NCBI GenBank assembly: GCA_040767105.1
Contig: JAXGPE010000007.1
Span: 2,465 to 66,464, forward strand
Source of the DNA: Peptococcaceae bacterium
GTDB taxonomy: Bacteria > Bacillota > Peptococcia > DRI-13 > PHAD01
DNA: 64,000 nucleotides
Direction: 5' to 3'
The position numbers were made by a program, and so were the translations under genes. Positions within the stretch are counted from its first letter, which is position 1. Every line of letters begins with the position of its first letter. Below the pieces are notes generated by a model. It was not told the origin of the DNA and did not search any database. It saw only the letters and a list, made by a program, of their open reading frames with translations. Below are positions 25,468 through 43,208 of this stretch, in pieces.

Positions 25468-25544
25468 TGGTGGGCGGTAATGGACTCGAACCATCGACCC
25501 CTACGATGTCAACGTAGTACTCTAACCAGCTGAGCTAACCGCCC
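25468..25544 (-). tRNA. tRNA-Val (GAC)
   Basis: 77-nt cloverleaf GGGCGGTTAGCTCAGCTGGTTAGAG...CTACG-TTGACAT-CGTAG...GGTTCGAGTCC...ACCA; CCA encoded. Confidence 0.97.
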
Positions 25545-25663: not shown

Positions 25664-25736
25664 AGGGATTGTGGTGTAGAGGTTGCACTCAGGTACGTGG
25701 CACCTGATTACGTGGGTTCGATTCCCACCTATCTCT
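25664..25736 (+). ncRNA. Non-canonical tRNA-His-like RNA (anticodon GTG)
   Basis: Cloverleaf: GGGATTG/CTATCTC acceptor, GTG/CAC D-stem, CAGGT-ACGTGGC-ACCTG anticodon arm, GTGGG-TTCGATT-CCCAC T-arm; A32/C33, A-1:U73, no CCA. Confidence 0.7.
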
Positions 25737-25789
25737 CTTGGCGTTGGCTTAAAACCCTTTTAAACCCTTTATGGGAACATTTTTTGTCC

Positions 25790-26568
25790 AAAAAGGTTTA
25801 TTCTGCCTGTATAACTCTGTGAAGCATGGTAAAAAAGAAATCCTTCCTGGCATACTTCATTTTTTATTTTATTGATATCCAATCCTGAATAATCATCATT
25901 CTCATACAAAATAAAGTTTTAAATTTTCATCGCTTATGCGTTTCAATCTCCTCTTTATAATGCTGACCCAGGCGGCGCTTTTCTTCTTTTTCTAAAGGTG
26001 GATTCTCTGCTTACATATCCCGTCAATGAGCCCCGCTGTATAAAGACAAACTTCTTCCACCCCGTTGTTTTGGATCAATAAGCCTTGAGGGTGGCGCTGG
26101 TTTATTTTTTGAATAATTTCTATTAAGGCTAATATTATTTCGTTTTTTTCTGATCTAGAGAACATTGGTGATTCAATATCAGCCATTGTATCAAGAAATA
26201 TACCGTCATAACCTGCATGATATAGTTCGCTTGCCTTATTCAACAAAATCCTGCTCCAGTTTTTGGATCTAGGATCAGCAAGGCTTGCGGCATATTTTTC
26301 GTTACGTAGGATCAAATCATTTCTTTTAAGGAGATCCGCTTGTCCGAGCAACATTTTTCTCTCTGGTATAATCAGCGACCTCGATAACACTCATGTAGGC
26401 AATACAGACTGTATTATTCTCTTTTAACCATCTGACGCTTTCAGCTGATTGTCCTGGGATTCCAAAATGGCAATGTCAAAATTAGCTGCTTCTTTTTCTT
26501 GTCCGTGTCCATAATAAAGCACCGCCAGTATCTGCTTCTGCAAAGCGTTTCCCAAGTATTTTCAACAT
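25790..26568 (-). CDS. Endo-alpha-1,4-polygalactosaminidase-like hydrolase (GH114 / PelA hydrolase-like), heavily frameshifted
   Basis: YYGHGQEKEAANFDIAILE, IAYMSVIEV, DPRSKNW, GYDGIFLDT, LLIQNNG, IDGIC; 3' end approximate. Confidence 0.75.
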
Positions 26569-26582
26569 GCTCCCGTTTGATA

Positions 26583-28425
26583 TCATAATTTCGGTCCCAT
26601 CCTATACAGAAACTCAGTATATACCATACAGCTGCGGCATGTATTTCCGTGTCTTTCACAAAGAACTCCTTCATTTTCCCAGCAATTTGTTCCCGGATTA
26701 TTAAAAGCCGGGCAATGCTTGCAGACGCTTTTGGGCGAGCAGCGGATCTCCCAGCATTTACCCAACGATCTGCCTCTGATTTCTGGTCTGGCCTGTTTTT
26801 TTGCGAACCAGTTGATCAAAGCATCAACTGCCTCAGTATCCAGCTGAGTTCCGGAAGCACTTTTCAGCAAGTCTATCGCCTCGGCGAAAGGCAATGGCTC
26901 ACGATATCTGCGGCCGCTTATTTTAGCTAAAAATGTCTGCACCACAGCAATGATTTTTGAACCTACAGGTATTTGTTCGCCCTTGATACCCTTGGGATAT
27001 CCGTATCCATCTATCTCATGATAACGGATGTAATCGGCGACCCTTTATTCGGTATTGTAGCTTTAATCAAGCCCCAACCTCCGCGTGCATTTTCATCTTG
27101 TCATATTCTGCTTCTGTGTATTTTCACATTTAAAGAGCAGTTCATTTGAAAACCAAGAACTCCGATATTGCCCCAGCAGCAGCCAATACCACATCTTTGA
27201 TGATCCTTCTTCTAAATTCATTTCGCAGGCGATGATACCGGCATACTTGGCCATAAGTTCAGAATATCCTACAGTATAAGGCTCAAGGTTATCAATCGTT
27301 TCTGCCATTAGCTTCAGTGTTTCAAGATATGATTCTGCAAGTTTTTGTATTTATTTTTGGCTGTCAAAGATCGGCTAAACGCTTCATCATTAAATGCAAT
27401 CCACGATAAAACGATGAGTTCTGCAAGGATATCATTGTACCAAAATGCCGCTATGCCCTTGTTCTTCTGTGTGGGTATATTTACAAGTATAACTCAACTC
27501 TATACCATGCTTGATCAGATGCTCCGGAAGAGTATAAAAATCGCGGTCTTTTTGTTCAGGATGCGGATCTGTCTTCCAAGTCCCAACGGCTCAGTTTGTG
27601 TATTCAGCGGTGTTGCGCATCATCACAACCTGCTCTGCTCTGTTTTTTACAAGTCTTCGTTGTTTTTCTTCTGCGATAATAAATCCTCCACCCGGCAGCT
27701 CCAATCATTTTTGCTGTTAAATTGATCAACAAGCGGCGTTGCCGACAAAATCTGTTAACTGTCACACTCAGGCTGTGAATAACGGCGCTTGGTACCTGTG
27801 ATCATGAACTCTGTTTTGGAGATCATCAAGATCATCGATCATTTTAGCTGAGTTACCAGCACCCGGCAAGCGTATTGTAGCCTTTTCCTGATTTTAGAAT
27901 TTTCTTTACCGGGACTATTTGGACAAGTCCTATATCCTCCAAAAGTATATTTAATAAATTTGACCGTATTTGATTATTGATATAAGCTTGAATATTTTTT
28001 GTTTTCATATCCTCAATTGCTTGGGAATATATTTATCTTTATAAGACAATAGACCACTGTATAGGTGATATATCAGTCATCTTCCTCCTGGTGCCTGATG
28101 TAGTACATATTGATCATTTCTTTTGTCGTAAAGGTAAAAAAAAGTATCAGGGCTCCAACTAAGGTTCGGAAAAATATCCAATACCGAACAAAGCATTTTG
28201 TCTAATCCCTCTTACATTAATACAAGTTCGGAATGGACCATTTTCAATATCTTGTGTTTTTCGATGTGTTTGGACTTTTTATGACTGACAACAACTACGA
28301 TCAAAGCAAAAATAATAATATCAGCTATAATGATCGAAATATTATTAGCTGGCAAGTTTGCGATAAAATCTTCGATGTTTTGATCGACCCAAAAATAGTC
28401 CCCAAAAACTACTAATTTTTTGCAT
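26583..28425 (-). CDS. Membrane-anchored degenerate HD-GYP protein with a C-terminal Cys-rich two-CW domain (heavily frameshifted)
   Basis: ATG 28425 after GAAGGGGG; TM IIIADIIIFALIVVVV; LEPYTVGYSELMAKYA; L.GNIGV in place of LHDIG; DGYGYPKGIKGEQIPVGSKIIAVVQTF; SGTQLD; CWE..C..CPA..NCWE..C..C..C. The link between the N-terminal TM and the HD part is inferred across frameshifts. Confidence 0.7.
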
Positions 28426-28429
28426 CGCT

Positions 28430-28782
28430 TTCCCCCTTCGCTTTTTTCAGATGCCTGTGCACATATTGTATCGCCATTTGTTAGTCAACTCGTTCAGCGT
28501 TCTTGTTTGAGATTTGGATGGATTGCTGCAGGATTACATCAATAACACTGCAATGCTCACGAATAAAAAACAGAAGGGTCGGCGGATAATCCACTCCAAC
28601 CAGCTCAGCAACGATGATCAGAGTGTTCGGCATAAAGGATAGGATCAGAATCAACAAAAGCCCCGCCAAACCATAGCATAGAAGTTCCTCTCGTTGATCT
28701 TTCTTCGGACGAGCAGAGCGCCTATTGCAACTACCAAGATGACACCGATAATCGCGGCCACCAGACGTGTTATAGGACTCAT
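28430..28782 (-). CDS. DUF2304-family small membrane protein (GacJ/Rv3632-like), frameshifted
   Basis: Directly downstream of a GT2; AELVGVDYPPTLLFF and SIQIS motifs followed by a short coiled coil. Confidence 0.7.
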
Positions 28783-29469
28783 TGTTTTGCCTCCTTGGTA
28801 GATTTCGAACGTATAATAATGACCAAAATACTTATAAGCATTTAAAGATATAATACGCTGGTCACAGGCCCAGAATGCGCCACTCCTCCTTCCTGCTCTA
28901 ATATTAGCAAGGAAACTCCTTTACTTTAAAAACCGCGCAGGATCATTCCGATAAAAATATCAGCATCAGGATAATCATAAAGGAAATTACCCATCATTGC
29001 GTAATACTTAAACACCTCTCTTCTCAAGCCTTGCAGCCCGAGGATGGTTATCCTCACTTTTGTTGCCATAAAGATTATCAGCGAAAAAGAATTGTGCTGT
29101 TCTTTTCATAAAACCAGTTCTAAAATCACCTTTGCCCAAAACCTTGAGCCAACTACTATATCAGCATTTTCTCCATCCATTATATCCAGCAGCTGAGATA
29201 TCTCGGTCATGCTGCCCGTCTGCATCGAACTGAATTACCCTCATAGCCGCGGGCACAAGCATACTTAAACCAGTCTGTAATGCTGCCCATGGCAAATTAT
29301 ACGGAAGCGCTATAACCTCCAAACCGGCCTCTTTGGCCTTTTTAACCGTTCGATCAGTGGATCCGTCGCGACTAAAAGTATATCGATCGGATAATTAAAT
29401 TTGCAGTTCCACAATGACTACTCGATACTTTTTCTTCATTCAGGGCTGGAATGATCAAGATTTTTCCAT
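28780..29469 (-). CDS. GT2 glycosyltransferase, polyprenol-phosphate sugar synthase (DPM1/GacI/PpgS-like), heavily frameshifted
   Basis: Manual fragments: IIPALNEE, DGSTDRTVKKAKEAG, AALQTGF.YA, QFDADGQH, ADIVVGSR, YDYPDADI. Confidence 0.75.
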
Positions 29470-31054
29470 CTCACGCCTCCTCTTTTTCTAAGTAAATACA
29501 GCGCCCAAAAATATACCGTCGTTAAGATCAATCCCGCTCCCATACCAAAAGCAAAGTTTGGTCCAAAGTTTTTCGGTTGAGAGTACCACAAACGGTTTAA
29601 AAATAAAATTATAAATAAGGGGAGTTGACCGGAGTATTTCGTATATTTTGCGAGTTGCTTTTTTCATTTTTACTCCCAGTGCTTTTTAAGGATAAAAAAA
29701 GCATAGATTGAAATTAAGTGAGCGCGGCCCCGCCCCGACCAGCCGGGCAAAAACTTTTGTCAAATAAAAATCGGCAGCAATTGTGATTAAAGAGGTGGAT
29801 GTTAGAATCACCAGGGGCTATCGTCTTGCCGTACCATAAAAAACCTTAATCAATGTAGATCATCCCGCCCGACAATGGTCAAAGAATATCCAGCTAGTAT
29901 ATCAGCAGTTATTTGCAGTGAAGGCTGATCAAAGCCCTCTCTGAAGCAATACAGGCCATTGGCACGCGCAGTAAACAAATTGTGAGCGTCAATGGTACGA
30001 GCGGTAGAGCTATCAGCCTGATTGCTCTGTTGTAGTTCACCGGAATAAATCATAGTCACCTATACCCTGGACTTGGCCATATCAGGAAATACGACGGCGA
30101 TAGCGCACAAAAACCCAAATGGAAACTGGGCAATGCGATAAGCATAATTAAGTCAGATATAGTTTCCTTCCCCGATAATCCGGCAAGATATCGTTCGGCA
30201 AAAAAAACTGTTTGCATTGCAAGCAAAATTAAAAAATAAGGAAAAAATGTTCCCAAAATACTTTCAAATCCTGTGAAGAGGATATTTTTGTCTTGTACTC
30301 ATCAAGCGGCCTTCTGATAGTAATATAAGCCGGCGAATCCCCCCCAAACAAGTACCGCCATGAATACGACCCCGCAAGTTATACCCCAGGCTATTATAAA
30401 TACGCCGTTTTGAATAAAGACATCATTCAATATACCGTATGTTATGGAGAACAGAAATATCATATTGAAAACAAGCGGACCCAAAGCCGGCAGATTAAAT
30501 TTTTTGTACACCTGCATTATTGATGCACCAATATTGTATAGGGGATAAAACAAAATAGTCGGCAGAAGGATACACAATAATTTTATCGTTAGTTCCGATG
30601 TTTCTTCAGACATACCAGGGCTAAGCAGTTGAATGATCTCCTCTCTGCCGAGGATCATAAGTATTGTTAATATAAGTGCCGCTCCCCAAAACATCAGGAC
30701 ACTATTTTTCAATGTTCTTCCTAACCTTTCTTTTTGTCCCAGTATCCATAGTTTGGCAAACACCGGGACACAAGCGACACCAACTGCTGCTGCAAAAAGG
30801 TTGTTACCGACAGTATCAGGTATAAATAGAGCTATCAGCAGTGCATCAGATTGTGGTGAAGTGCCGAGATAATATGCAAGCACAATATCCCTAAGCAATG
30901 CCGCGACCGCCAAAAGCATGTTAATAAATACTAAGGTGCTTATACTGCTGCTTAGCATCTTTTTGTTAGATTTTATCAGGCTTATCAAAGTTTTGATCAA
31001 CATGCTGCACTTCCTTAATATACCGCTATAAATATTGATTTTAGTATCGACCAT
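29470..31054 (-). CDS. MurJ/MviN-like (MOP family) lipid-linked sugar flippase; 3' half frameshifted
   Basis: LLRDIVLAYYLGTSPQSDALLIALFIPD, CVPVF, KFNLPALGPLVFN; downstream fragment FFAERYLAGLSG. Confidence 0.8.
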
Positions 31055-31078
31055 TCATAATCAATATAATTACTGTGA

Positions 31079-31939
31079 TCATAGCTTGACTTCAGGCCAT
31101 ATACATTCTTGGATCACCTGGCTCATCGGATAAAACTTATGCGCCTTTATTAACCTCCGGATTTTTGAAGCAGTAGTAACGATATTATAATAGTGAACAA
31201 AACATATATGAGGAGGAAAATCTAATCTGGGCTGCTCAACATCTATTTCCCAAGGATGGACATAAAGCATAGCTGTATTTTTTTTACTGACCTGTCTGAA
31301 ACAGTGATTTACAAACCAATATGGCCAAAATCGCAAGTAAAAGCCTCCTGAAAATGGTATCTTGAATATTCCGAACTTCAAAACTGTAGATGGATATTCT
31401 AAAATATTGATTTTTCTGCCGTCGATCACTGGATAAAAGGGTCTGAGCGGTGCTTTATTAACACCTGATAGAGGTGTTCGAAAAGGCTGTATACTGGAAT
31501 CGTATATAAAGCCCTCCTGCTCAAGAACTTCAAAGACCCAAAGTGTGTCGCGGGATATCGACCAAGATGCGGCACGATAACCAGTGACCGCCTTCCCCGT
31601 AACATCTTGCAGAATATTCTTTGATAAGATCAAATCCTTAGTGAACCATTCCCGGGATTGGGCATCAAGCATTCGATGCTCATAGCCATGCGAGGCTATT
31701 TCATGTCCTCTTGCGGATATTTCACGTATCAACTGCGGATATTTTTGTGCTATATAACCCAAAACAAAAAATGTCCCTTTCGTTTCTGTATGGTCTAATA
31801 TATCCAAGAGCTCAATGGTATTTCGTTCAATGCGATCTTCGTATTCCGGCCATTTTGAACAAGGAAAATCGAAATCGTTGGTTTGATACCAATCTTCCAT
31901 ATCGATCGTCAGGGTATTTTTCATCATTGTACTCCTCAT
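31079..31939 (-). CDS. Polysaccharide deacetylase (CE4, DUF3473-type)
   Basis: TIDMEDWYQ, GTFFVLG, HEIASHGYEH, GYRAASWS, YDSSI, GGFYLRFWPY, YVHPWEID; no signal peptide. Confidence 0.9.
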   Translation of the reverse strand: MRSTMMKNTLTIDMEDWYQTNDFDFPCSKWPEYEDRIERNTIELLDILDHTETKGTFFVLGYIAQKYPQLIREISARGHEIASHGYEHRMLDAQSREWFTKDLILSKNILQDVTGKAVTGYRAASWSISRDTLWVFEVLEQEGFIYDSSIQPFRTPLSGVNKAPLRPFYPVIDGRKINILEYPSTVLKFGIFKIPFSGGFYLRFWPYWFVNHCFRQVSKKNTAMLYVHPWEIDVEQPRLDFPPHICFVHYYNIVTTASKIRRLIKAHKFYPMSQVIQECIWPEVKL

Positions 31940-33102
31940 CTAAATAAAATCTTTTGCCACATATTCTTGTCAAAAAAATATCTTGCTGCTGCCAAGAAGA
32001 AACCTAAAACCGGCAGTGGATCATCCGGGGAATACATATCGTCATAAACCAGTTGCTTTTTACCGCTCAAAAATGGCGGGTCCATATTTCTCCGCTGCTT
32101 ATTAAAAAGGAAATGCAGAATTTCTCCTGGAAAAGTCCATTTGCATTTGATACCGGTTCGATAAGACGAAACATATTCGATGGGTTCGTTTATCATTGTT
32201 TGATAAAGCAGCCAGGGGAAATCTATGCCGGCAAATATGGCCATCTGGACTGAAGCCCAAAAGCGCGGATTTATTTCCATAAAATACATCTGTCCATCTG
32301 CTTTATTTTCCATGAATTCGATTTCGACAATTCCCTGCCAGGGCAGCAGTTGCATTAATTTGAGGCTCATATCGAGCAGTTCCGGATTTTCAACACTTTC
32401 CTGCACAGTACTTGGGCCCCAGTTGATAGGAAAGTTTCGAATCTCTTTTTGGACAAAAGAAGCTTTAAGCTCACCGTTTCTATCATACAGAAGACAAACA
32501 TCATATCTGTTTTTTGGCTCAATATATTGTTGAATCATGGGCCATGGATATTGCGAATGGATCTTTATGTATTCAGCTATCAGCTCTTCTTTACAGCTGA
32601 CTTTGCGAATGCCTCTTGATCCTGAGCTTATACGCGGTTTTATTATCAGAGGATATTTCATGTCTTCCGAAAATTCATATACTTGCTGCAAATCAGTTAT
32701 ATTCATCGTCAACGGGCAGCACAATCCTGCTTCCCGGGCTTTGACCATTGCTTTTCCTTTGTCAGCGGCACAAAAATAACTTTCCGAAGCAGGAAGAGGC
32801 ATAAGGCATAATTTTTCAAGCTCATCCCGATGTTTTACTGCAAGAAAAAAAGCATCGTCATCCATCGGGATAAAAATCTGGCAGTTATTATCCAGCAAAG
32901 TTTTTTTAATCCAGCTCAGATATTCATCTTCCTTTGAATGCTGTTCAGGGGAAACTATATGTTTGTAACAGTATTTGGAGCAGGCAGTCGGAGTAAAGTG
33001 AGTCCGGTCTGCGGCAATGATCTGCAGCCCCCGTTTGCCAAGCGATCTTGTTACTGCAAGCGTTTTGCGCTGCTGGGCATCAGAAAGGAGTACCTTTGGC
33101 AT
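31936..33102 (-). CDS. ATP-grasp carboxylate-amine ligase
   Basis: LAVTRSLGKRG, YPLIIKPRISSGSRG, MIQQYI, FMEINPRFWAS, AGIDFP. Confidence 0.88.
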   Translation of the reverse strand: MPKVLLSDAQQRKTLAVTRSLGKRGLQIIAADRTHFTPTACSKYCYKHIVSPEQHSKEDEYLSWIKKTLLDNNCQIFIPMDDDAFFLAVKHRDELEKLCLMPLPASESYFCAADKGKAMVKAREAGLCCPLTMNITDLQQVYEFSEDMKYPLIIKPRISSGSRGIRKVSCKEELIAEYIKIHSQYPWPMIQQYIEPKNRYDVCLLYDRNGELKASFVQKEIRNFPINWGPSTVQESVENPELLDMSLKLMQLLPWQGIVEIEFMENKADGQMYFMEINPRFWASVQMAIFAGIDFPWLLYQTMINEPIEYVSSYRTGIKCKWTFPGEILHFLFNKQRRNMDPPFLSGKKQLVYDDMYSPDDPLPVLGFFLAAARYFFDKNMWQKILFR

Positions 33103-33114
33103 GATCCTTCTCCC

Positions 33115-35166
33115 TTAATCATTTAGATTAATAATATCTACAGGATTCTTTCCATCTTGTTCGATTTTGTAAACCTTTAAAAAATCACTTTCATAAAATA
33201 CGCTGAAGCGGTCGTCTTTCTGCATGCCTAACTCTGCCCAGGCATTGACCTTTTTTTCAATATTATATCTATTTTTTATATCGTAGTAATAGGTTTCATT
33301 TGCATTATTGCCAGGCGCTGGCAAAGCTTCTTCCAGAGCATTTTCATTGACAAAACCGTTTGAATTCAACGGTACCTTTTCAACAAATACAAAAATATAA
33401 TCAGTCGGTATCTTCAGCTCCTGGTTATCCTCGATATTTTTTACAAACTCCCATATTTCGTAGTGCCAACCATAACCAAGTGCCTGCTGGTACTGTTCGA
33501 CAGGTGAGATTATCGTCCAATTCGCTCTTGGAAAATTTTCTTTTATTTCAAGATATGCCAGAACAGCCTCATCATATTCGTATCGCTCCCCTTTCGGTAT
33601 TGCATTAAAGGGACCAGCGGACAATACAAAATACAAAGCTGTAACACAAAATATCGTTTTATAAATATACTTGTGTTTATCTTTAATGCTTAATATATCG
33701 ACAAAATTTATCGGGCTGGCCAGCACAATAACAATAAACGGCGAAAAGAAAATACCGATCCTTACCGGGTCCATGACTTGGGGCAATCCATAATAATTGG
33801 CTCTATAGAGAAGATACAATACTATCGTTGTCAGAATAAATGCTCCAGATGATTGAAAGGACTCATTTTGCAGGTTTTTTTTGTATCTACTCAGTAAATT
33901 AGTTAAGATCAATATTGATATACATGCAAAAAACAGCAATAGTATTCTATTGTTTTCCATAAATATGCTTTTTTCGATTGACCCCGTGCTGTCCTGAATA
34001 ATTTTGAATTTACTCTGAACATATCCTAGGCTTTCATGGAATTTCTTGCCAAGAGCGAGTGCCGTAAACCATGGTAGAACGGCTATAGATACCGCACCTA
34101 TCATTGATAATGCGAGCGAAAAAATGATCCTTCCTTTGCATATTTTTTTTATGTTCGTCAGAATCGATATACTATAAGACAAAGTCAGAATAATTGTCGC
34201 ATACGGGTGGATAAAAGTTACTATCGCAAGGCACTCCGCTGCAAGGAACAGAAATTCTTTCTGACGTTTTTTGATATAGATATTCAGGAAGTGAATACCG
34301 GGCAAGATAAAAATGATCGCATATTCCATCGGCAGAGGAGATATTTGTCTCCATATATAACTGGGTAATTCTGCACTTACGGACAACCCATAGATCAACA
34401 TCGCTGCCCATGCCAAATGAGTTCCATTAAAATTCTTTCTCGCAAAATAGTAAATACTTATAACGATCATAATTCCGGCCAATGGTCCTAAAAAACGCAT
34501 AACATAATAAGGATCGATGAAGAAGACCCGTTCTATAGCAGCTACAACTGCTTGATAACCATAAGGATATATGCCGTCATGATATATATCATTCTGGATA
34601 AGATACTTAGTCCAGGCAAGATGCAGATAGGAATCCGAAGTTCCCAAATACATATGGGTGAATGAATGGTGGAAACGAATAAATGCCGCCCCGATAAATA
34701 CAGCTAAAAGCAATACTCCTTCAAAGGGGCAGCATATTATCTTCCTTGCTAGGACTCTTATACATACGAATATGCCTTGACGGCAGGAGCAAAAAATGCT
34801 TTGCATTAATTTCCGCAGCCAGTTTTTTGTTTCGGATATATCCAAAAGTCTCACGATAAGGATCATGCCAAAAGTTTCAGTGGATGCGGACGATTTTCTT
34901 CTTTTGGCAAGCCAGATAGCAAATATATATAGTGCCAAATAGCTCAACATAAGAGAAAATGTTTCATATATCTTCAAAAACACTAATATATGTGTCAAAA
35001 GTATGATCACAAAATGAGCATGAGTAATGCTGATAAAGAATTTGTCCCCTATTCCTTTGCTGTCTTCACGAAAAGGAATTATCCCAGAAGGTAAAATAAC
35101 GTAAAAAAGCATGTATACAAAGATAACTTTGAAAAACATCCCCATGGTATTGACAGGATCGATCAT
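33115..35166 (-). CDS. Polytopic membrane protein, probable GT-C fold glycosyltransferase (paralog 2)
   Basis: 683 aa with many TM segments; loop SDSYLHLAWTKYL...DGIYPYGYQ; soluble C-terminal domain; paralogous to the upstream gene. Confidence 0.7.
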   Translation of the reverse strand: MIDPVNTMGMFFKVIFVYMLFYVILPSGIIPFREDSKGIGDKFFISITHAHFVIILLTHILVFLKIYETFSLMLSYLALYIFAIWLAKRRKSSASTETFGMILIVRLLDISETKNWLRKLMQSIFCSCRQGIFVCIRVLARKIICCPFEGVLLLAVFIGAAFIRFHHSFTHMYLGTSDSYLHLAWTKYLIQNDIYHDGIYPYGYQAVVAAIERVFFIDPYYVMRFLGPLAGIMIVISIYYFARKNFNGTHLAWAAMLIYGLSVSAELPSYIWRQISPLPMEYAIIFILPGIHFLNIYIKKRQKEFLFLAAECLAIVTFIHPYATIILTLSYSISILTNIKKICKGRIIFSLALSMIGAVSIAVLPWFTALALGKKFHESLGYVQSKFKIIQDSTGSIEKSIFMENNRILLLFFACISILILTNLLSRYKKNLQNESFQSSGAFILTTIVLYLLYRANYYGLPQVMDPVRIGIFFSPFIVIVLASPINFVDILSIKDKHKYIYKTIFCVTALYFVLSAGPFNAIPKGERYEYDEAVLAYLEIKENFPRANWTIISPVEQYQQALGYGWHYEIWEFVKNIEDNQELKIPTDYIFVFVEKVPLNSNGFVNENALEEALPAPGNNANETYYYDIKNRYNIEKKVNAWAELGMQKDDRFSVFYESDFLKVYKIEQDGKNPVDIINLND

Positions 35167-37134
35167 TTATTGTTCCTCCCCCAAACCCGGCGTTTTTCTT
35201 CTTCTGCCTTCTTTTGCTGGTGTATATGCCATATTCTAAGTACATCATCTTCATAATAAACGCTTATGTTGTCATGATATTTTTGGTATTCGTAAAGCCA
35301 ATCCTTTAATTTTAAGTATTCCGATTCCCGACGTTCATATATTTCCTGTAAAGACTCAAATTCCGCCCTGAAAAGTTCTTTTTCTTCATAAATGAAAATA
35401 TCTTCGTTATCAAGAAATTCTTCAGGATCACCATCTTTACGAAAAAGCTTTGGGGTGCTGGGGTCATACCAGGTCAAAAAGTCCTGCAACATCAGATGCC
35501 AGCCTTTTCCGAGCACAATAGCATATCCTTCCTCTTGTGAGACGATAAGCCAGGTCGTAGGGGTAAATTCCTTTGATATTCTTAAATACTGAGCAACTCC
35601 GCTTTCGTGCTCCATTTTATATGGTTTTGGGATTATCGGTTTATCATTGACCAATATAAAAACAAAGATGGCCATCACAAAGAATATTCCCACACATCTT
35701 TTTTTCAGAGGCGGCAGAAGGTAAGCCAAAGAATTCATCCCAAATCCTATACTGATCGGAAGAGCCAGTGTCCATAAATCGTCTGCCCTGAAGCAACGAA
35801 GGTGCTTTGCGTCCATACCCTCCCCAGCGATAAAGCACAAACGTAAAGCTCGCAAAAAATAATATAAGTAAATCGTACGCACGACTTTTTTCACGACGAA
35901 AGGGAAGCGTGATCACTATGATGAGTAGTCCGGCTAAAGCAGCGTAATCCAGGTTTTTTAATGCCGGTATATATGTTATTGATGATTGGGCAACCAAATA
36001 TTCCGCTGAAGACCCGTGGAACTGAGAACCTAACAGTAGTCCAATCGCAGCAGGAAGAATCGAAATAAGACACGCTATGATCCCGGCAAGTGCAATGGTC
36101 AAAACCCTTCTCCACCGCTTACGAAACCCTGTCAACAATCCAGCCAGGCCGACTAACGCCATCCCCAGTCCTATGTAACCAAAACCAAGCGTATGAGAAA
36201 GTCCTGCTGCACAAGTTGCCGCTAAAGCCGGAATGAGGTCTTCGATTTTTCCCTCAAAGACAAAGCGAGCAAAGAAAAAGAGGGCCGGGAAAACAAAGAT
36301 AAAGGCAAACTCCTGAGAGTTTGTAGACGCTTGCCGCATCCAGTCATCAAAAAAGCTTCCACCCATTATCCCGTATATGAATGCCGCAAGCAAAGCCGGA
36401 GAAGTTTTTTCCGTGATTCTATATACAAAATAACCCATAGCTCCTGTTGTAAGCAAACCGTTAAAAGGTCCGGTAAATTTTAGTACATGTAAAGGATCGA
36501 TCGCCGAAAACTTATAGATCGAAGCCAGAATGATGTGAAAGCCCTGAGGATATATACCATCATGAAAAATATAGCGTTGGTTGATATATTTCATCCAGGC
36601 CAATGTGACGTATGCATCTGACATTGCCGGCGCAGAGGTCGTCCAAGCATCATAAAACCTCAAATATGCCGCTCCGCCTATAACCGAGATCAAAATCAGC
36701 ATTGTGAGGAGATTGGGTGGTCTGCGCAATTTTTTCAAGGCATTTAATGCTTTTTTTCGTTTGTCCGAAAGATTTTCGTTTAATACCTTGGAGACCTTTT
36801 CTTTATTTTCCAAAAGATCGTACATGCGAATGTTAAAGCTTGTAAGGAAGTTCTCATTCTTTTTTTTGCGATAAAAATGATACACCGCATAAATCAAAAT
36901 TACGATGCTTATACCCAAAACCTCGAATAGCTTTATCGCAGCCAGAATATATCCAAAAATGATCAAAAACATTGTCATAATGACATAGTTGCTTACTGCA
37001 TTATCTATGGAGCTTTCCTGGCGGCGCGAAAAAATAAACCGCGGGATTATCGAAAATATCACGACAAAGGCAAGCAGGAACCTACCAAATAATATTGTTT
37101 TTTCCCAGAAGAGAGCGTCCATGCAATTCACCAT
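35163..37134 (-). CDS. Polytopic membrane protein, probable GT-C fold glycosyltransferase (paralog 1), frameshift near 35800
   Basis: SDAYVTLAWMKYI...DGIYPQGFH; MRQASTNSQEF; C-terminal WLIVSQEEGYAIVLGKGWH matches WTIISPVEQYQQALGYGWH of paralog 2. Confidence 0.7.
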
Positions 37135-38724
37135 TTAAGCGTTTGAATACAGGTAATAATCCAGATGTTCGAGCAATCTGAATGCGGCCTTGCTCGTCAT
37201 TACAGTAAATATGATCGCTCCTAATAGAAACCCGAACACTGCATAGGTATGATCGAACCAGCGACTTAATAAAAATCCGAGGACTATATCTGATAATATT
37301 GCCCACAACATAGCTCTGGTGGCGTTTTCCGGGTGAGAAAAGCAAAATAATACTAACGCATTCATCAGTCCTATACATAAAATAGTAAATCCGATTAGAC
37401 CGATAATAAAAACAAAATTTGTTGTATTACTGCTGATCAGCGGGTCATGAACCGGGAAAAATGAAAGCAGGTGTACATGTTTGACAGAGTAATAGACAGC
37501 TGCCGAGCTGATCAATGAAAATACCGCAACGATTATCATTCTAAGAAAATAGCTTCTTAAGCTCATCCTGTTCATTAGTCCGATTTCATGCATACTGAAA
37601 TTTTTTTGGTTTTTTTCTATATTGCCCATCAATTCCGAGATAACGACTTCAATAAGACCCATTGGTATGATCAAGGCGAATAAAGCGTAATCAAGACCTA
37701 ATTCGTAAGCCCCTCTGAACCAGATGATATAAGGCATAAACTGCGTATCCGTTGACCAGGCGATTATCCTATCTGTATAAAGAAAGCTGAAGTACAAAAA
37801 CCCATAAACAAAATAAGGTAATACTGTATAAATAGTGATCGCGGTTCGGGGCATTGCTGAAACATTAAGAGCTTTACCTGACTTTTTTTCCATTTTTTTA
37901 AAATATCTCAGGGCGACCAAAGCTCCTAAAATCGAAACAATACCCAACGAAATCAACTGTGCTATGATCACGTCAATGCCAAACAATCTGAAAAGCACAA
38001 ACACAAAAGCTATGCCGATAACGAGCAAGAGAGGGATTACAATTTCCTTGCCCAATACATAAAATATGGTGAAAGACAGCCAAATGGCACTGAGAAAAAA
38101 GAAAAATATAATGATAACAAAAAGCATCCTGTAAGGAAAGATGCTGAAAAATAAATTAAATATTATAAAAAAAAGCGCAGCCGTTATACATACAACATAT
38201 CCAACACGAACCAGGTAGAAAACGACGCGTCGAGCCAAATTATAATTGCCCAGATTAATATAAAGGAACCCCCGGCGGGCAATAGCCTGGGCGAAGCCTC
38301 CAACAGCCATAAAGCTCATGATCGTTCCTATAGCAATACTGGTGGCAACTTCAAGAGTCAAGCCGATGTATGATGACATCGAAAAATTCATCGTAAGCAT
38401 AGCCAAAACGGAGATTGTCATGGGTAAAGCAAATATTGTTCCTCGAAAAAAACTTCTTATGACCATGTAGAGATAAGCTGGTATGGATTTTCGAGGAACA
38501 TCGGCAAAAGCCCGGGCGCTGATATTCTGTCGGGAAATCCTCCATATTTCTCCGGCAAGCTCAAAGATATCCTCTACTCCAAATTCTTTTGCTGCTCTTG
38601 CATCATTCCAGCCATTTGCCTCGAGGATAGCGGCAATCTCATATTGATCCTCCGGAGATAAATGCTTCTGCAGGACCTCATTGACAACATCATGATATTT
38701 GCTGTCTCGCACAGATAGCTGCAT
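37135..38724 (-). CDS. PelG-like multi-pass membrane protein (putative polysaccharide exporter)
   Basis: 529 aa with about 12 TM segments after a short soluble N-terminal domain (EIAAILEANGWND...FGVEDIFELA); YFSFLYTDRIIAW resembles the PelG loop motif; co-operonic with a PelF-like GT4. Confidence 0.65.
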   Translation of the reverse strand: MQLSVRDSKYHDVVNEVLQKHLSPEDQYEIAAILEANGWNDARAAKEFGVEDIFELAGEIWRISRQNISARAFADVPRKSIPAYLYMVIRSFFRGTIFALPMTISVLAMLTMNFSMSSYIGLTLEVATSIAIGTIMSFMAVGGFAQAIARRGFLYINLGNYNLARRVVFYLVRVGYVVCITAALFFIIFNLFFSIFPYRMLFVIIIFFFFLSAIWLSFTIFYVLGKEIVIPLLLVIGIAFVFVLFRLFGIDVIIAQLISLGIVSILGALVALRYFKKMEKKSGKALNVSAMPRTAITIYTVLPYFVYGFLYFSFLYTDRIIAWSTDTQFMPYIIWFRGAYELGLDYALFALIIPMGLIEVVISELMGNIEKNQKNFSMHEIGLMNRMSLRSYFLRMIIVAVFSLISSAAVYYSVKHVHLLSFFPVHDPLISSNTTNFVFIIGLIGFTILCIGLMNALVLFCFSHPENATRAMLWAILSDIVLGFLLSRWFDHTYAVFGFLLGAIIFTVMTSKAAFRLLEHLDYYLYSNA

Positions 38725-38727
38725 ACT

Positions 38728-39897
38728 TCAGTCTTCCATTCCGGGTAAAACCATATTCACGATCAATTCAGGCAATTTACCCTCGGTTTCAGCCTTAGAA
38801 ATAATTTCTTTAGTTATCGTTGCACCCTTTGTTATTATTGCCTCCCCGTTATTACCGATTAGATCTTTCCCGGCCAATTTACCGGCAATATATTTGAAGC
38901 GTGTATTTATTATTTCACTGGCAACCGCTGGACTGCCGGAGTTTCCGCCATCACTGCTTGCATTTTCTTCTGTACTGTTTTCTATTTTTTCATCGCTATA
39001 ATCTTTTAACTGGGTCTTTATCATTTCACTTGTTTGCGTTTTATAATGATCCAACATATCTTCTGCCTTCTGTATACTTTGTGTTCTGTTTTCTTGTGTG
39101 CTGTTGTTTTCAGTATCAGAAGTCTTCCAAAATTCTTCAATTTCTTCATGATTGGCGCTGATATTCTCGGATCCACTTTCTTCTTCGGCAGCTTCTGCCG
39201 TAAAGTCTTCCTTTGTTATTTCTTCCTTATTAAGTTTCTGGGCAAGTTTATTCATCATTCTTTTAAGACGCCCAGCCTCCTCGTCTTCTCTTTTTTCATT
39301 TTCACTCTCGAAAAAAGGTGTCCCATCAGCAGCGATCTCTTTTTCCTCAGCCCATTGATCATTTGAATCGAAATCGCTCAAGTCTTTTTCTTGGTTACGC
39401 AAATTTCTCTCATTTATTATTTCATTCAGTTTAATTATTTTGTTAGATAGTTGCTCAGTTTCAGGGACGCTTTTTTCAGTATCTTTCATGATGCTCGCTA
39501 ACTCCTCAAGCAAGCTTTTGATTTGTTTTTTTGTTGTGACAATTTCTTCTTCAATATCAGCGATTTTTTGTTTATCCGCAGCTTGTTCTTTTTCAGCTTC
39601 TTTTAAAACCTTTTCCGCATCCAACGCTGCTTTTTGCATTAATATTTCCGTCATTTCCTTGACCCTGTTTACCGTGAGGGTTATAAAATCTTCACCCTCA
39701 AAACGCGTTGCCCATTTTTCCTGGAGTCTATCAAGTTTCTCACTCAAAGTGTATTTCTCCGACAATGTCTCTTCAAGCTGCCTTTGCAACTGTGACAATT
39801 CAAAAGAATGGTTTTCCTTAAGTTTCTGAAAATAGCTTTCAACTTCACGTTTTCTATATCCTAATAACTTTATTCTAAAATTTTGAGGTCCCGTCAT
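38728..39897 (-). CDS. DivIVA-like N-terminal domain protein with coiled coil, acidic linker and small C-terminal domain
   Basis: FRIKLLGYRKREVESYF; long heptad region; C-terminal KYIAGKLAGKDLIGNNGEAIITKGATITKEIISKAETEGKLPELIVNM. Confidence 0.7.
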   Translation of the reverse strand: MTGPQNFRIKLLGYRKREVESYFQKLKENHSFELSQLQRQLEETLSEKYTLSEKLDRLQEKWATRFEGEDFITLTVNRVKEMTEILMQKAALDAEKVLKEAEKEQAADKQKIADIEEEIVTTKKQIKSLLEELASIMKDTEKSVPETEQLSNKIIKLNEIINERNLRNQEKDLSDFDSNDQWAEEKEIAADGTPFFESENEKREDEEAGRLKRMMNKLAQKLNKEEITKEDFTAEAAEEESGSENISANHEEIEEFWKTSDTENNSTQENRTQSIQKAEDMLDHYKTQTSEMIKTQLKDYSDEKIENSTEENASSDGGNSGSPAVASEIINTRFKYIAGKLAGKDLIGNNGEAIITKGATITKEIISKAETEGKLPELIVNMVLPGMED

Positions 39898-40315
39898 CTC
39901 CGTACGCCTCCAAAACCTTCTTGTATGAATTTGTGATTGTTTCCATCTCTTTGGTCAAAGACTCCAATGCCTTTTTGATTTCCAGGCGTTTTGTCTCCTT
40001 TTCAAAAATATCCGCTTTGGATTTTCTGATAATTCGCTGGCCTTCTTTTATCGCCGCAAACACCTCTTTGCTTGCACGATCATGACTATCGAACAACTCT
40101 TTCATTATTTTCTGGTTAAGTCGTTCGCGCTCCTCAAATTCATCATTGATCTGCCGGATCTTTTCTTGCAGCAACTCTATTTCTCGAGTGACATTGTATA
40201 ATTGATCGCTTAATTCCTTGATCCTATTCTCGTAGTGCTCTATATCAGAAATGATCCTGTTTTCGACCTCGGCCCGGTCATATCCAAAAAGAGCACGCGG
40301 AAATATCTTTTCCAT
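39875..40315 (-). CDS. DivIVA-like domain coiled-coil protein
   Basis: FPRALFGYDRAEVE followed by about 120 aa of coiled coil. Confidence 0.7.
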   Translation of the reverse strand: MEKIFPRALFGYDRAEVENRIISDIEHYENRIKELSDQLYNVTREIELLQEKIRQINDEFEERERLNQKIMKELFDSHDRASKEVFAAIKEGQRIIRKSKADIFEKETKRLEIKKALESLTKEMETITNSYKKVLEAYGDDGTSKF

Positions 40316-40324
40316 TTTTCCTCC

Positions 40325-42060
40325 TCAAGCGATTTGTTGATGATTTAGGACATCAAAAAGAGCTTCGGCCTTGTCCAGCTCATTGAAGGCCTTATCAAAC
40401 TGACCCATGCTATTATAGGCTTTTGCGATCTCAGTGATTATAGCCGGTACTGCCGGGGTATCCGGCGCTACTTCTACTGCCTCCCGCAGCTGGATCAAGG
40501 CTTCAGGCCACAATCCCAGAGACATAAAAGCATATCCTCTTTCGATACGCAGACGCTGAACACGGATCTTATCCGTGATCTTCGTTAAATCATCTTTACC
40601 CTTGGCAAGAGCTTTATAACTACTAAATACGCATCAAGTACTTTTTCAATGGTGAAATAATTCAGAGCCCGTTGGCGAGCTTCCTCGCCAAGGTTGATTC
40701 TCATCTGCGGATTTTCTAAAAGCCTTATAACTTCTTTTGCAAGCTCTTCCGGCTTGTTAGGCTGGATAAGTATCCCTGTTTCACCGAGCGCTTCGCTTAT
40801 GCCGCCAACATCAGTGGCAACGACAGGCTTCCCTGTCATCATAGCTTCTACAACGGAATAAGGGAACGCCTCAGTTATACTTGAAAGGCAACTACATCTC
40901 CACTGCGATAGGCCGCAGGTATATCCTCAGTGTGTCCAGCGAAAATAAAATTTTCTTGCAGTTCTTTTTCCTGGACCAGTTTCTGACACTCTGCGAAATA
41001 CTCAGGTACTGCTACCGAACCATACACAATAAAACGCACATCTTTTATTCTGCTGCGTACAATATCCGCAGCACGGATCAATGTGACTATATCTTTACCG
41101 GATCTATACGAGCTACAGTAATAACAGTAGGGAATTTGTTCGAAATACTTCTTGGAGGTGGAGTAATACCTCCTTATTAACTCCGTTATAAATAACTTTT
41201 ATCGCTTCTTGCTTTACTCCAAGATTTTTCTCCCAGCGTGGATTATAATTGCATACAGGTGAAACTTGGTCTGCGAAGTGGGAATTTAGCTGCGTGATCG
41301 AGTTTATCATTCGCACTAAAAAAGTGTTAAGAAAAGAAGGATAGCCCCTTTTAGACAAGGAAAGATATTGCTCGCGCAGGTAAACTCCATGTTCGGTCAA
41401 AAGAAAAGGTGTTTTATTTTGTATTTTTGCCAGCACACAGGGGATCCCGCAAAATGCCGCCGCGGCAGAGTGCGAGACATTTACCCTTGGTATAGGCGTA
41501 TTAAGAATTATCAGAAAGCGATATATCCAGCCCATGCTCTGGATCATCGCCCAGACATTGGGTTCACTTATCTGATTGCTTTTTTCAGAAGAGAAGGCCA
41601 TGAGCATTTTTTTATATATTTCCCATGTGTCTTCAGCCTTGAAGCTTTTTTTATAATCGTATTCCTGAAAATACTCATGCATATTCGTAAGAGTATTTCC
41701 AAATCTTACCGCATTTTTTTCAGTACTTACTAATTCTTCGATCAGGTCTAAAAATAAGGGCAAAAACTCGCGCCGTACTACCTGATCATTTGTTTGCCGC
41801 TTAGCGATATAAACCTGAGAAAAAGGTGTAGTCAAGTGTTCGCTTGGTTCTTCAGTTCCCCAAAGCGGTACGGTTATAAGGCTTGAAGTTAAAGGAAGAT
41901 TAAATTTCCTCGTGACAAATGGATTCATGATAATGCTATATACAACATACTCAATGTCTGTAAGATTATGTACAAGCTGATCACACCAAGTGCTGACTCC
42001 GCCTTGATGATATGGATATGTCCCTTCAGTTGTGAGCATCACCCTGATTTTATCTTCCAT
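40325..42060 (-). CDS. pelF: PelF-like GT4 glycosyltransferase (DUF3492 plus GT-B) with a fused C-terminal TPR region; several frameshifts
   Basis: TEGTYPYHQGGVSTW, LTEHGVYLREQY, VIYNGV, EAFPYSVVEAMMTGKPVVATDVGG; a shift near 40620 leads into SYKALAKGK...RGYAFMSLGLWPEAL...AKAYNSMGQFDKA. Confidence 0.85.
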
Positions 42061-42338
42061 TTGCAGGTCACCTTTGCTTGTTTGGTCGGCATTAAAAACA
42101 CAGTGCATTTTTACCAGACAATTAAGAATAAAATGTATAGCATTTTTCTATTAATACATTATAATTAGTGATACGTGACTAAAATGAATTGTTAAATATC
42201 ATTTAAAATTTATTTTAACATTTATTTACTTTTTATTCAAATATATCTTTGTTTTTCAACTCATTATTAGATAATCTTATATTATTCTCTAAATTTTTTA
42301 ATAAAATTAATGTTATTTAATTTTTAAGGAGGATTTTT

Positions 42339-43208
42339 ATGTCTGATTATGTTATATTAACAGATTCTTCCTGCGATCTTCCCCGAAGCTTTATAGATCA
42401 ATATCAGGTGCCTTTCGTCAGTCTGGTATGTAATTTCCGTGGTAAAGAATGGGTCGATGATTTTGGAAAAACTTTGGATTATAAAGAGTTTTATTCTGCC
42501 TTAAGACAAGGAGAAATGTCGAGTACTTCTCAGGTAAATGTCCAAACCTATCTGGATAAATTTAATGAATTCACAAAGCAAAACAAACCGATAATATATA
42601 TTGGTTTTTCTTCCGCCTTAAGCGGAAGTGTTTCAAGCGCCTATACCGCACAAAAAATCTTTTCAGAACAGAATCCTCATGCGGATATAACAATTATCGA
42701 CAGTAAAAGTGCCTCTCTCGGTCAAGGACTTTTAGTATACTACGCTTACGCTATGCAAAAAAATGGTACAAGTAAAGAAGATTTGATTGGATGGCTTGAA
42801 AATACTAAACTAAAAATCAATCACTGGTTCACGGTTGATTCCCTTGATCATCTGAAACGCGGAGGGCGTATTTCAGGAACTGCCGCCTTTATCGGTAATA
42901 TACTAAACATCAAACCTATCTTAAATGTAAATGACAGCGGCGGACTAGTTGCAGCATTCAAAGCTAAGGGTCGTAAAAAAGCTCTGCAAAAAATAGCAGA
43001 CATGCTTGAGGAAAACATCATTGATCCTGAAGAACAGGTCATTGCAATAAGTCACGGCGATTGTCTGGACGAAGTCGAATATCTTGTCAGTCTCATTAAG
43101 GCAAAATATACCTTCAAGGATATAATAATCAACCATGTTGGTCCTGTTATCGGCTCCCATTCAGGCCCAGGCACTATTGCCCTCTTCTTTATAGGTGAGA
43201 AAAGATAG
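42339..43208 (+). CDS. DegV family fatty-acid-binding protein
   Basis: TDSSCDL, STSQV, SSALSGS, DSKSASLGQG, HLKRGGRIS, IGSHSGPG. Confidence 0.95.
   Translation: MSDYVILTDSSCDLPRSFIDQYQVPFVSLVCNFRGKEWVDDFGKTLDYKEFYSALRQGEMSSTSQVNVQTYLDKFNEFTKQNKPIIYIGFSSALSGSVSSAYTAQKIFSEQNPHADITIIDSKSASLGQGLLVYYAYAMQKNGTSKEDLIGWLENTKLKINHWFTVDSLDHLKRGGRISGTAAFIGNILNIKPILNVNDSGGLVAAFKAKGRKKALQKIADMLEENIIDPEEQVIAISHGDCLDEVEYLVSLIKAKYTFKDIIINHVGPVIGSHSGPGTIALFFIGEKR

Follow-up and report, generated by a model that had tools for sequence, protein, structure and literature searches.

Gene content and organization of the locus

The locus described here, a row of 13 genes with an apparent kinship to the Pel polysaccharide operons, lies in a 64,000-nucleotide stretch of the genome of a Peptococcaceae bacterium (hereafter, the window; positions 2465–66464 of contig C18 in the source genome G000, a bin of 975 kb in 20 contigs that is 64% complete). 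The genes form one tight row on the minus strand, from ~25992 to ~42063 (Table 1), bounded at its 3' end by two tRNA genes, 25471–25544 (-) and 25665–25736 (+); a divergent DegV gene (42321–43205) precedes the operon start. Judging from its gene complement, the locus probably specifies a Pel-related apparatus, complete in itself, that produces a polysaccharide at the surface of the cell or outside it in endospore-forming Bacillota.

An initial annotation of the window had delineated the row as 25790–42060 and described it as a hybrid Pel-like operon. The order and content of the genes were borne out, and all family and fold labels given to the 13 genes held in searches with Pfam, NCBIfam, Foldseek, hhalign and orthologues; the 3' boundary was misplaced, position 25790 falling in the spacer before the plus-strand tRNA gene. 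The row is cleanly readable only in the intact orthologous loci of G005 (L007) and G001 (L006). Among the relatives used for comparison, G001 and G002 belong to the same family as the source, and G005 and G007 to the same order.

Table 1. Genes of the Pel-related locus, in the order of transcription; coordinates are those of the window.
Product	Coordinates	Strand	State in the window
PelF-like glycosyltransferase of family GT4 (DUF3492 + GT1 domain) with C-terminal TPR	40328..42063	-	broken by consensus errors, start approximate
Div1, DivIVA-like coiled coil, 146 aa	39875..40315	-	intact
Div2, DivIVA-like N-terminal coiled coil, variable linker and PRC-barrel-like C-terminus, 389 aa	38728..39897	-	intact
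PelG-like membrane protein of the MOP superfamily, 529 aa	37135..38724	-	intact
GT-C-like membrane protein 1	35163..37134	-	one frameshift, open reading frames 35644-37134 and 35163-35894
GT-C-like membrane protein 2, 683 aa	33115..35166	-	intact
ATP-grasp ligase, 388 aa	31936..33102	-	intact
CE4 deacetylase + DUF3473, 286 aa	31079..31939	-	intact
MurJ-family flippase paralogue	29490..31054	-	broken after ~aa 250, 3' end approximate
GT2, polyprenyl-phosphate sugar synthase-like (PpgS/GacI-like)	28775..29490	-	broken, ends approximate
DUF2304, small protein with three transmembrane helices (GacJ/Rv3632-like)	28406..28782	-	broken, end approximate
Transmembrane / GAF-like / degenerate HD-GYP / Cys-rich (two CW motifs) protein	26583..28436	-	heavily broken, start approximate
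PelA-hydrolase-domain-like (GH166/GH114 clan) TIM barrel	25992..26560	-	broken, start approximate

Seven of the 13 genes, namely those for the PelF-like protein, the first GT-C-like protein, the MurJ-like flippase, GT2, DUF2304, the HD-GYP protein and the product of the last gene, contain frameshifts or stops in the window, and their models rest on orthologues (tblastn with the G005 proteins), not on the reading frames of the window. Contigs from four public runs, each from a different study, aligned to positions 25700–42200 with 90–99% likeness, and their gaps relative to the window lie almost all within 25700–30550. Thus, X1 (record 1) has 208 gaps over 25700–34243; X2 has 122, 57 and 29 gaps in three pieces within 25700–30554 against 3 gaps in 30536–35954; and X3 has 86 and 61 gaps in the 25700–30550 region against 0, 0 and 0 further on. 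At several of the listed sites, a letter present in the window is missing from all four runs. The consensus of the bin is locally poor over 25700–30550, and coverage by open reading frames (ORFs) is low in other patches of the bin too. Essential or conserved genes elsewhere in the window, those for threonyl-tRNA synthetase (ThrRS; 15214–17189), a SpoU methyltransferase (13022–13899), a U32 peptidase (3945–6550) and DAHP synthase (47976–49089), are likewise each split into two ORFs. Because the public contigs differ from the window by dense indels and essential genes are split in the same manner, we attribute the breaks to assembly or consensus errors and consider the operon of the source organism most likely intact; the same indels justify the earlier call for polishing of the region. 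The frameshifts and in-frame stops of the window copy could also be taken to mean that the operon is decaying in the source organism, with seven of its 13 genes reduced to pseudogenes that have no function there, but this is very improbable, given that the dense indels of four runs from four studies are confined to 25.7–30.5 kb, that the runs agree with one another at the listed sites and that essential genes such as that for ThrRS are split within the same window.

Conservation, accessory genes and hosts

The gene for the 529-aa PelG-like protein was found in 5 of the 41 genomes searched, the source genome and its relatives G001, G002, G005 and G007; in G005 and G001, none of the 13 genes is broken and their order is unchanged. 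When one genome per species was scanned, 137 pattern matches were obtained, 116 of them encoding a relative, and the order F-(d)-D-G-C (PelF-like, an optional small DivIVA-like, the larger DivIVA-like, PelG-like and GT-C) recurs across the best 80 of these 116 loci, which were retained as L013–L092. The gene set is far beyond chance. Among the 68 loci with both a PelF-like and a PelG-like gene, 50 have a small ORF (100–175 aa) followed by a larger one (≥ 270 aa) between the two, and several others have a single ORF there.

Gene counts were made on 43 loci with ~10 kb on both flanks, hand-picked from the 80. PelF-like, PelG-like and GT-C genes are present in all 43, Div2 in 42, GT2 in 40 and DUF2304 in 34, and two or more GT-C genes occur in 20. 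The HD-GYP gene was counted in at least 38 of the 43 and the hydrolase-like gene in at least 28, both being lower bounds, as these genes often lie past the 10-kb flank. The ATP-grasp (29/43), CE4 (27/43) and MurJ paralogue (30/43) genes come and go jointly and constitute an accessory module that is missing from about a third of the loci, and the gene-order strings mark the PelF-like, Div, PelG-like and GT-C genes as the invariant block. Accordingly, the set of 13 genes proposed initially is co-conserved across genomes, as judged from order strings and counts alike, but its conserved core is smaller than 13 genes. A GalE-like epimerase gene is found in 29 of the 80 loci, often directly upstream and on the same strand; the window has none beside the operon, and one is present on contig C1 of the source genome. 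That the gene set is real, widespread and uncharacterized is well supported.

Among 1.84 billion representative sequences, the family of the 529-aa protein comprises 298 clusters at E ≤ 1e-30. Bacilli that host the locus include many Paenibacillus, Cohnella, Gorillibacterium, Tumebacillus, Psychrobacillus, Paenisporosarcina, Priestia abyssalis and Ectobacillus, and the Clostridia include Desulfosporosinus acididurans, Clostridium algoriphilum, Pelotomaculum, Desulfovirgula, Dethiobacter, Gracilibacter, Herbinix, Ethanoligenens and many further bins. The labels of three bins, which carry loci L027, L070 and L084, place them outside Bacillota (Udaeobacter, Smithella and Ignavibacteriales).

Each of G001, G005 and G007 (99, 99 and 91% complete) has one DUF3492 gene, and the Pfam PelG family (PF16933) has no match at E ≤ 0.1 in these three genomes or in G000; by these profiles, the operon stands alone in G001, G005 and G007, without a second Pel set. 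G002 carries a canonical pel operon (L011, on G002:C153) as well as the new locus, consisting of a GAF-bearing gene cut by the contig end, a 298-aa gene without a family name, and the DUF2194, PelF and PelG genes. Adjoining this canonical operon is a CoA-transferase III gene like that at 54781–55956 of the window.

The Pel-type core

A 331-aa piece of the PelF-like protein encoded in the window matches Pfam DUF3492 with 137 bits (cut-off 23.3; PelF-like proteins score 130.8–137.2 bits), and the gene can be followed by tblastn along its G005 orthologue with 56% identity over residues 2–481 and 48% over 483–581, through a frame change and internal stops. The G005 protein passes the NCBIfam PelF model NF038011 (145.8 bits, cut-off 100) and is 28% identical to the canonical PelF of G002 (E 9e-53). 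PelF-like proteins are 577–666 aa long in the first 45 of 61 full-length orthologues, compared with 478 aa for the canonical protein, and their extra C-terminal ~100 residues consist of TPR repeats: TPR families were matched by all 14 pieces tested, and the C-terminal piece of the window at 40328–40633 matches TPR_14 (30.1 bits, cut-off 23.5).

The 529-aa protein matches no Pfam family at threshold. Its AlphaFold2 (AF2) model (pLDDT 77.7) shows a four-helix cytoplasmic N-terminal domain of ~90 aa followed by a bundle, with MATE, MurJ and WzxE transporters as the best Foldseek matches. When the profile of the family was aligned with 32 canonical PelG sequences, hhalign returned 91.3% probability (E 9.7e-7) over 411 columns. 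The likeness to PelG noted at the outset can, therefore, be retained in the form of remote homology over the whole membrane domain, below the Pfam cut-off: on profile and model evidence, the protein is best described as a distant PelG homologue of the MOP fold with an added cytoplasmic N-terminal domain, not as a member of the Pfam family. Support for a physical synthase–exporter pair comes from a natural fusion, P0363 (1056 aa), in which residues 29–511 are PelF-like (41% identity, E 5e-124) and residues 544–1054 are PelG-like. Complex predictions for the PelG-like N-terminal domain with the TPR part of PelF and with the C-terminal domain of Div2 scored 0.00 and are no evidence either way. 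Two relatives of the 529-aa protein, P0236 and P0253, have the N-terminal helical domain in two copies; the membrane part of P0236 is seemingly duplicated as well (5 matched stretches).

The product of the last gene (36% identity between the window and G005 by tblastn) gives weak Pfam matches to GH114 and GH66 and had been labelled GH114-like. The clan is correct, but a profile of 37 orthologues is closer to the hydrolase domain of PelA, its best PDB matches being the PelA structures 9cgy, 5tcb and 5tsy (E 5e-23 to 2.5e-22), whereas GH114 entries rank far lower (7e-6 to 0.06). The PelA hydrolase domain is classified as GH166, with E218 termed the catalytic base (PMC9894940, consulted in part); the alignment of the new protein to PelA extends up to profile position 175, and E218 lies beyond the printed alignment. 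A hydrophobic N-terminus or signal peptide is absent from 37 of 40 orthologues, and the protein appears to be cytoplasmic.

The two DivIVA-like proteins

The two proteins encoded between the PelF-like and PelG-like genes match Pfam DivIVA (PF05103) under the cut-off of 28 bits, Div1 with 20.1 bits (E 6.3e-4) in the window and 26.3 bits in G005, and Div2 with 17.1 bits (E 5.6e-3) in the window. Among 51 Div1 orthologues, DivIVA is the commonest Pfam match (16 at E ≤ 0.01, best 1.3e-10) and an N-terminal G-Y motif is conserved. Of as many Div2 orthologues, five match DivIVA at E ≤ 0.01 and five match a PRC barrel (best 7.3e-6) at the C-terminus, the last ~70 aa being the conserved part of the protein. 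In the ESM Atlas, Div2 (score 0.81) falls in clusters with DivIVA in 16% of members, which we treat as a lead only.

A degenerate HD-GYP protein and possible links to c-di-GMP

The HD-GYP protein has one transmembrane (TM) helix (residues 32–50 in G005), followed by ~330 residues, an HD_5 domain and a Cys-rich tail. GAF_3 was detected in the middle part in 7 of 43 orthologues, and the tail carries seven conserved Cys, one His and two CW motifs. In the window copy, where the position of the metal site is unreadable, HD_5 is matched by a 153-aa piece; the G005 protein scores 104 bits. When the latter is aligned to the phosphodiesterases 5z7c and 4mcw, Tyr replaces the first His and SN replaces the HD dyad, and the HHExxDGxGYP motif is kept. 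The same pattern prevails in an alignment of 43 sequences (G005 and 42 of 44 candidates, two that were cut by locus ends being dropped). HD_5 and HHE are present in all 43 and GYP in 42, and the dyad reads SN in 33, HD in five and otherwise in five, so that HD is lost in 38 of 43; the first His is kept in six and is Tyr, Phe or Arg in 37. These alignments support the earlier proposal of a degenerate HD-GYP domain where a receptor for cyclic di-GMP (c-di-GMP) would be expected. The five orthologues with an HD dyad also keep the first His, and in four of the HD-keeping loci (L032, L060, L068 and L074) the gene order departs from the usual one, the HD-GYP gene standing upstream of that for the PelF-like protein. 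The 'HD domain/sensory box protein' of PDB entries 9rc0 and 9rbz, which has SQ at the position of the dyad, may be a structural precedent for such a degenerate domain.

Four loci, in Psychrobacillus lasiicapitis, P. insolitus, Paenisporosarcina indica and Priestia abyssalis, are without the HD-GYP domain; here, the TM helix and the first domain are fused to the PelA-hydrolase-like domain in ORFs of 444–474 aa. These TM–GAF–hydrolase fusions indicate that the hydrolase is tied to the membrane-anchored sensor protein and that the HD-GYP part is dispensable. The P. abyssalis locus has a c-di-GMP-II riboswitch (73.4 bits, gathering score 53.5) that ends 52 nt before the PelF-like start. In C. algoriphilum, two tandem c-di-GMP-II riboswitches (L050:3099–3324) lie ~4.4 kb upstream of the PelF-like gene and precede, on the same strand, a Bac_transf gene, fragments of a UDP-glucose dehydrogenase gene, GT4 genes and then the PelF-like gene. 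A c-di-GMP-II model (R1) built from two sequences and run over 84 sources recovered only the known sites in L055 and L050, along with five weak matches (E 0.06–0.64) that were taken as noise.

Scans of the window operon for promoters and terminators yielded chance-level matches only. Upstream sequences of the PelF-like gene, 250 nt each, from 63 loci were compared with rough regular expressions for the SigE, SigK, SigF and SigG consensus, which matched 0, 1, 0 and 0 loci, not above shuffles; a loose SigA-type pattern was somewhat enriched (16 versus 8.5 ± 2.7 in shuffles). These results bear on whether the polysaccharide is specific to sporulation, being deposited on the forespore or spore surface and placed there by the DivIVA-like proteins. 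The named hosts, uncorrected for background, belong mostly to genera that we take to be endospore-forming (Paenibacillus, Psychrobacillus, Priestia, Desulfosporosinus, Clostridium, Pelotomaculum and others), SpoIVA is encoded in all four near-complete relatives that carry the operon, and PRC-barrel and DivIVA-like domains are present, all of which would fit such a role; yet no excess of sporulation sigma-factor sites precedes the operon, and the riboswitches of two species point to vegetative or biofilm control. We regard a sporulation-specific product as improbable; the placement at pole, septum or forespore that had been proposed initially is conjecture.

A putative lipid-carrier module

Several genes in the locus suggest a route by which sugars would reach the cell surface on a lipid carrier. 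The window GT2, recovered as tblastn pieces, corresponds in G005 to a Glycos_transf_2 protein (Pfam, 89.7 bits), the best NCBIfam match of which is PpgS (E 1e-28; 100 bits, far under the cut-off of 370). PpgS is the polyprenyl-phosphate N-acetylgalactosamine (GalNAc) synthase. DUF2304, found in two frames in the window by tblastn, scores 79.6 bits in G005 (cut-off 25.5), and its gene adjoins that of GT2 in most loci. A 250-aa piece of the MurJ-like protein matches Pfam MurJ in the window, where tblastn finds the gene in three frames; the G005 protein scores 202.9 bits with Pfam MurJ and 193.5 with NCBIfam murJ, compared with a cut-off of 235.6.

GT-C 1 aligns by tblastn with its G005 orthologue in two frames (41% over residues 1–440, 49% over 451–654), gives a weak match to DUF6541 and is a paralogue of GT-C 2. 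The AF2 model of the latter (pLDDT 84.8, pTM 0.87) has as its best Foldseek matches GT-C enzymes exclusively, DPY19, STT3/PglB/AglB, ALG9/12, ArnT, Pmt, AftA and Emb, with E-values of 1e-7 to 1e-3 and TM-scores of 0.36–0.49. In the ESM Atlas, the GT-C-like protein falls in unnamed clusters, a minority with DUF6541 or DUF1616, which again is a lead only.

The accessory CE4 protein matches Polysacc_deac_1 and DUF3473 of Pfam in the window; its G005 orthologue passes TIGR03006 (282.9 bits, cut-off 276.2) and has a weak ArnD-type NCBIfam match (E 5e-7). A hydrophobic N-terminus is absent from CE4 in 38 of 41 orthologues, which predicts a cytoplasmic protein. A CE4 step on a lipid-linked sugar would parallel that of ArnD in the Arn pathway (ArnC/D/E/F/T). 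The ATP-grasp protein matches the ATP-grasp families of Pfam, and its PDB relatives are only generic, of the biotin-carboxylase type, and do not point to a particular substrate.

In the group A carbohydrate pathway, GacI and GacJ make N-acetylglucosamine-phosphate-undecaprenol, GacK is the proposed flippase and the GT-C enzyme GacL carries out the transfer, and in mycobacteria Rv3632 stimulates PpgS, with Rv3779 as the GT-C partner (10.1101/180810, consulted in part). The new module resembles these systems in combining a GT2 synthase and a DUF2304 helper with a MOP-type flippase and an outward-acting GT-C. The analogy with GacIJKL and the fold and family matches support the polyprenyl-phosphate-sugar decoration module (GT2 with DUF2304, flippase and GT-C) that had been proposed for this locus. 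In the Gac, PpgS and Arn systems, the corresponding parts serve a rhamnan, arabinogalactan or lipid A pathway; here, the module would be joined to a synthase of the Pel type, and it differs from those systems also in its often paired GT-C paralogues and in the ATP-grasp ligase.

Comparison with known Pel systems

The closest described relative in Gram-positive bacteria is the pelDEA(DA)FG operon of Bacillus cereus ATCC 10987 (PMC7112168, consulted in part), with which the new locus shares a PelF-type GT4 with DUF3492 encoded beside a PelG-type MOP protein, an associated UDP-sugar epimerase activity and an expected control by c-di-GMP. It differs from that operon in the TPR fused to PelF and the extra N-terminal domain of the PelG-like protein, and it lacks PelD (GAF and degenerate GGDEF), a separate PelE and the DUF2194 deacetylase; in their stead, it has the TM–GAF protein with a degenerate HD-GYP domain, two DivIVA-like proteins, a cytoplasmic PelA-hydrolase-like protein and the GT2, DUF2304 and GT-C genes. 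As noticed initially, the locus has no pelD- or pelE-like gene, none of the 13 proteins having a GGDEF domain and the TPR forming part of the PelF-like protein. The Pfam profile PelD_GGDEF (PF16963), searched against the genomes, gave no match anywhere, controls included, and is hence uninformative beyond the locus.

With the pelABCDEFG operon of Pseudomonas aeruginosa, the new locus shares homologues of PelF, PelG and the PelA hydrolase domain in one operon, as well as a degenerate domain of c-di-GMP turnover that stands behind a membrane anchor and a GAF-like domain at the position of the receptor. This domain is an HD-GYP in the new locus and a GGDEF in P. aeruginosa PelD; the hydrolase of the new locus is without a signal peptide or a deacetylase domain, and the outer-membrane parts PelB and PelC are missing. 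PelD is an inner-membrane receptor composed of a GAF and a degenerate GGDEF domain, and inactive HD-GYP domains are listed among the c-di-GMP-binding motifs (PMC4933438, consulted in part). Like the HD-GYP phosphodiesterases PmGH (4mcw) and V-cGAP3 (5z7c), the new family has an HD_5 domain with a near-invariant HHExxDGxGYP motif; it departs from them in the altered first His and HD dyad, the preceding TM helix and GAF-like domains, and the tail with 7 Cys and 1 His.

By these sequence comparisons, the locus would work like a Pel system without being a canonical member, as PelD, PelE and the DUF2194 deacetylase are absent from it and its PelG-like protein falls below the family cut-off. No published description of the architecture was found, in agreement with the initial annotation, although operon variants shown in the supplementary figures of PMC7112168 and PMC7112194 would escape text searches; DivIVA, MurJ and Paenibacillus have no occurrence in the text of PMC7112168. 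Both studies mention Gram-positive loci for which pelF and pelG alone were identified, and these could include members of the new family.

Proposed mechanism and alternative readings

In the mechanism that we propose, the PelF-like protein would polymerize a UDP-N-acetylhexosamine at the inner face of the membrane while docked on the PelG-like exporter, the substrate being probably UDP-GalNAc from the frequently adjacent epimerase. The alpha-1,4-GalNAc-type backbone proposed initially, which in Pel is partially de-N-acetylated, is a candidate product hinted at indirectly by the homology to PelF and the PelA hydrolase and by the epimerase neighbours. The part that PelE plays as a scaffold would fall to the TPR of the PelF-like protein and to the two DivIVA-like proteins, and the TM–GAF protein with its degenerate HD-GYP domain would replace PelD as the c-di-GMP sensor and hold the PelA-hydrolase-like domain at the complex; we infer that the output of the machine would be gated by c-di-GMP through this protein, a role for which the riboswitch of P. 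abyssalis gives indirect support. Meanwhile, GT2 and DUF2304 would load a sugar, perhaps an amino sugar, onto polyprenyl phosphate. Where CE4 and the ATP-grasp ligase are present, the lipid-linked sugar would be de-N-acetylated and then re-acylated or aminoacylated on the cytoplasmic face. The MurJ paralogue would flip it outward, and the GT-C enzymes would add the carrier-borne sugar to the exported polymer outside the membrane. A more specific proposal, which we put forward tentatively and hold to be possible but doubtful, is that the locus represents a third class of Pel-type synthase in Gram-positive bacteria, with an HD-GYP receptor switch, DivIVA-like placement, a cytoplasmic PelA-like hydrolase and a polymer decorated, once exported, with an aminoacylated amino sugar that arrives on a lipid carrier by an Arn/Gac-like route.

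Several observations weigh against the Pel-related reading or its parts. The 529-aa protein of the window fails the cut-off of the Pfam PelG family (13 bits versus 29, spanning residues 93–526), which is matched at E ≤ 1 by just 11 of 26 members of the new family (best 6.5e-7); alignment of the family profile with one canonical PelG sequence gave 4.8% in hhalign, a value superseded by the profile–profile run. The DivIVA assignment of Div1 and Div2 is weak, being below the Pfam cut-off in both the window and G005. Because the hydrolase-like protein and CE4 have no signal peptide, they would be unable to act on the exported polymer as PelA does. The five HD-GYP orthologues with both the dyad and the first His may be active phosphodiesterases rather than receptors. 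Riboswitches for c-di-GMP were found in only two of the 14 loci scanned with Rfam, with none in the other 12 or upstream of the window operon. Finally, the best structural matches of the GT-C model are protein glycosyltransferases (DPY19, oligosaccharyltransferase and Pmt), so that these enzymes could be acting on a protein or on a different wall polymer.

This last point leads to a different reading, in which the locus encodes not a synthase-dependent exopolysaccharide machine but a lipid-carrier pathway of the Wzx type that yields a wall-linked glycopolymer or glycosylates proteins. The PelF-like protein would then build a glycan or glycolipid at the inner face, the 529-aa MOP protein would serve as flippase for a lipid-linked intermediate (compare WzxE and GacK), and the GT-C enzymes would add sugars to a polymer of the wall, to lipoteichoic acid, or to proteins that are secreted or belong to the S-layer. 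Besides the GT-C matches, such a pathway would account for the resemblance of the 529-aa protein to the lipid flippases MurJ and WzxE as well as to MATE exporters, for the loci that keep GT2/DUF2304 and GT-C without a MurJ paralogue and so need another flippase, and for the Bac_transf phosphoglycosyl transferase gene upstream, on the same strand, in C. algoriphilum. The conserved core, however, has no initiating phosphoglycosyl transferase, three Pel homologues (PelF, PelG-like and PelA-hydrolase-like) occur together, and the PelF::PelG-like fusion suits a synthase–exporter pair. A Wzx-type pathway is, in our assessment, rather unlikely.

If the locus is a Pel-related polysaccharide machine, it would provide a natural experiment in which the PelF/PelG core operates with another receptor (a degenerate HD-GYP for a degenerate GGDEF), other scaffolds and an added lipid-carrier route, and inactive HD-GYP domains that serve as sensors would gain a further example. 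Such a role would also assign a function to the 529-aa MOP family, the two GT-C-like families and the Cys-rich tail domain. The occurrence of the locus in culturable Paenibacillus, Priestia, Psychrobacillus, Desulfosporosinus and Clostridium makes the proposal directly testable.

Other features of the window

Between the gene for ribosomal protein L35 (14326–14535) and that for ThrRS, where infC would be expected, no minus-strand ORF of 70 aa or more is present. An IS240-type DDE transposase gene, in two fragments, lies between zapA and pheT at 8346–8832 (+). Downstream of the locus on the minus strand, at 19000–24900, an HpaB-type gene (4-hydroxybutyryl-CoA dehydratase-like), a NifU gene and fragments of an acetyl-CoA hydrolase/transferase gene stand behind a PAS/sigma-54 activator gene. 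On the other side of the locus, a thiamine pyrophosphate (TPP) riboswitch at 46318–46424 (-) precedes an operon for a thiamine-binding protein, NMT1 and an ABC transporter, and a T-box leader at 47728–47989 (+) precedes the genes for DAHP synthase and prephenate dehydratase. At the end of the window, 56105–64000 (-), lies a Tad/Flp-type pilus cluster with an Flp1-like pilin, two T2SSF proteins, a T2SSE ATPase, DUF5702 (split) and DUF6382.

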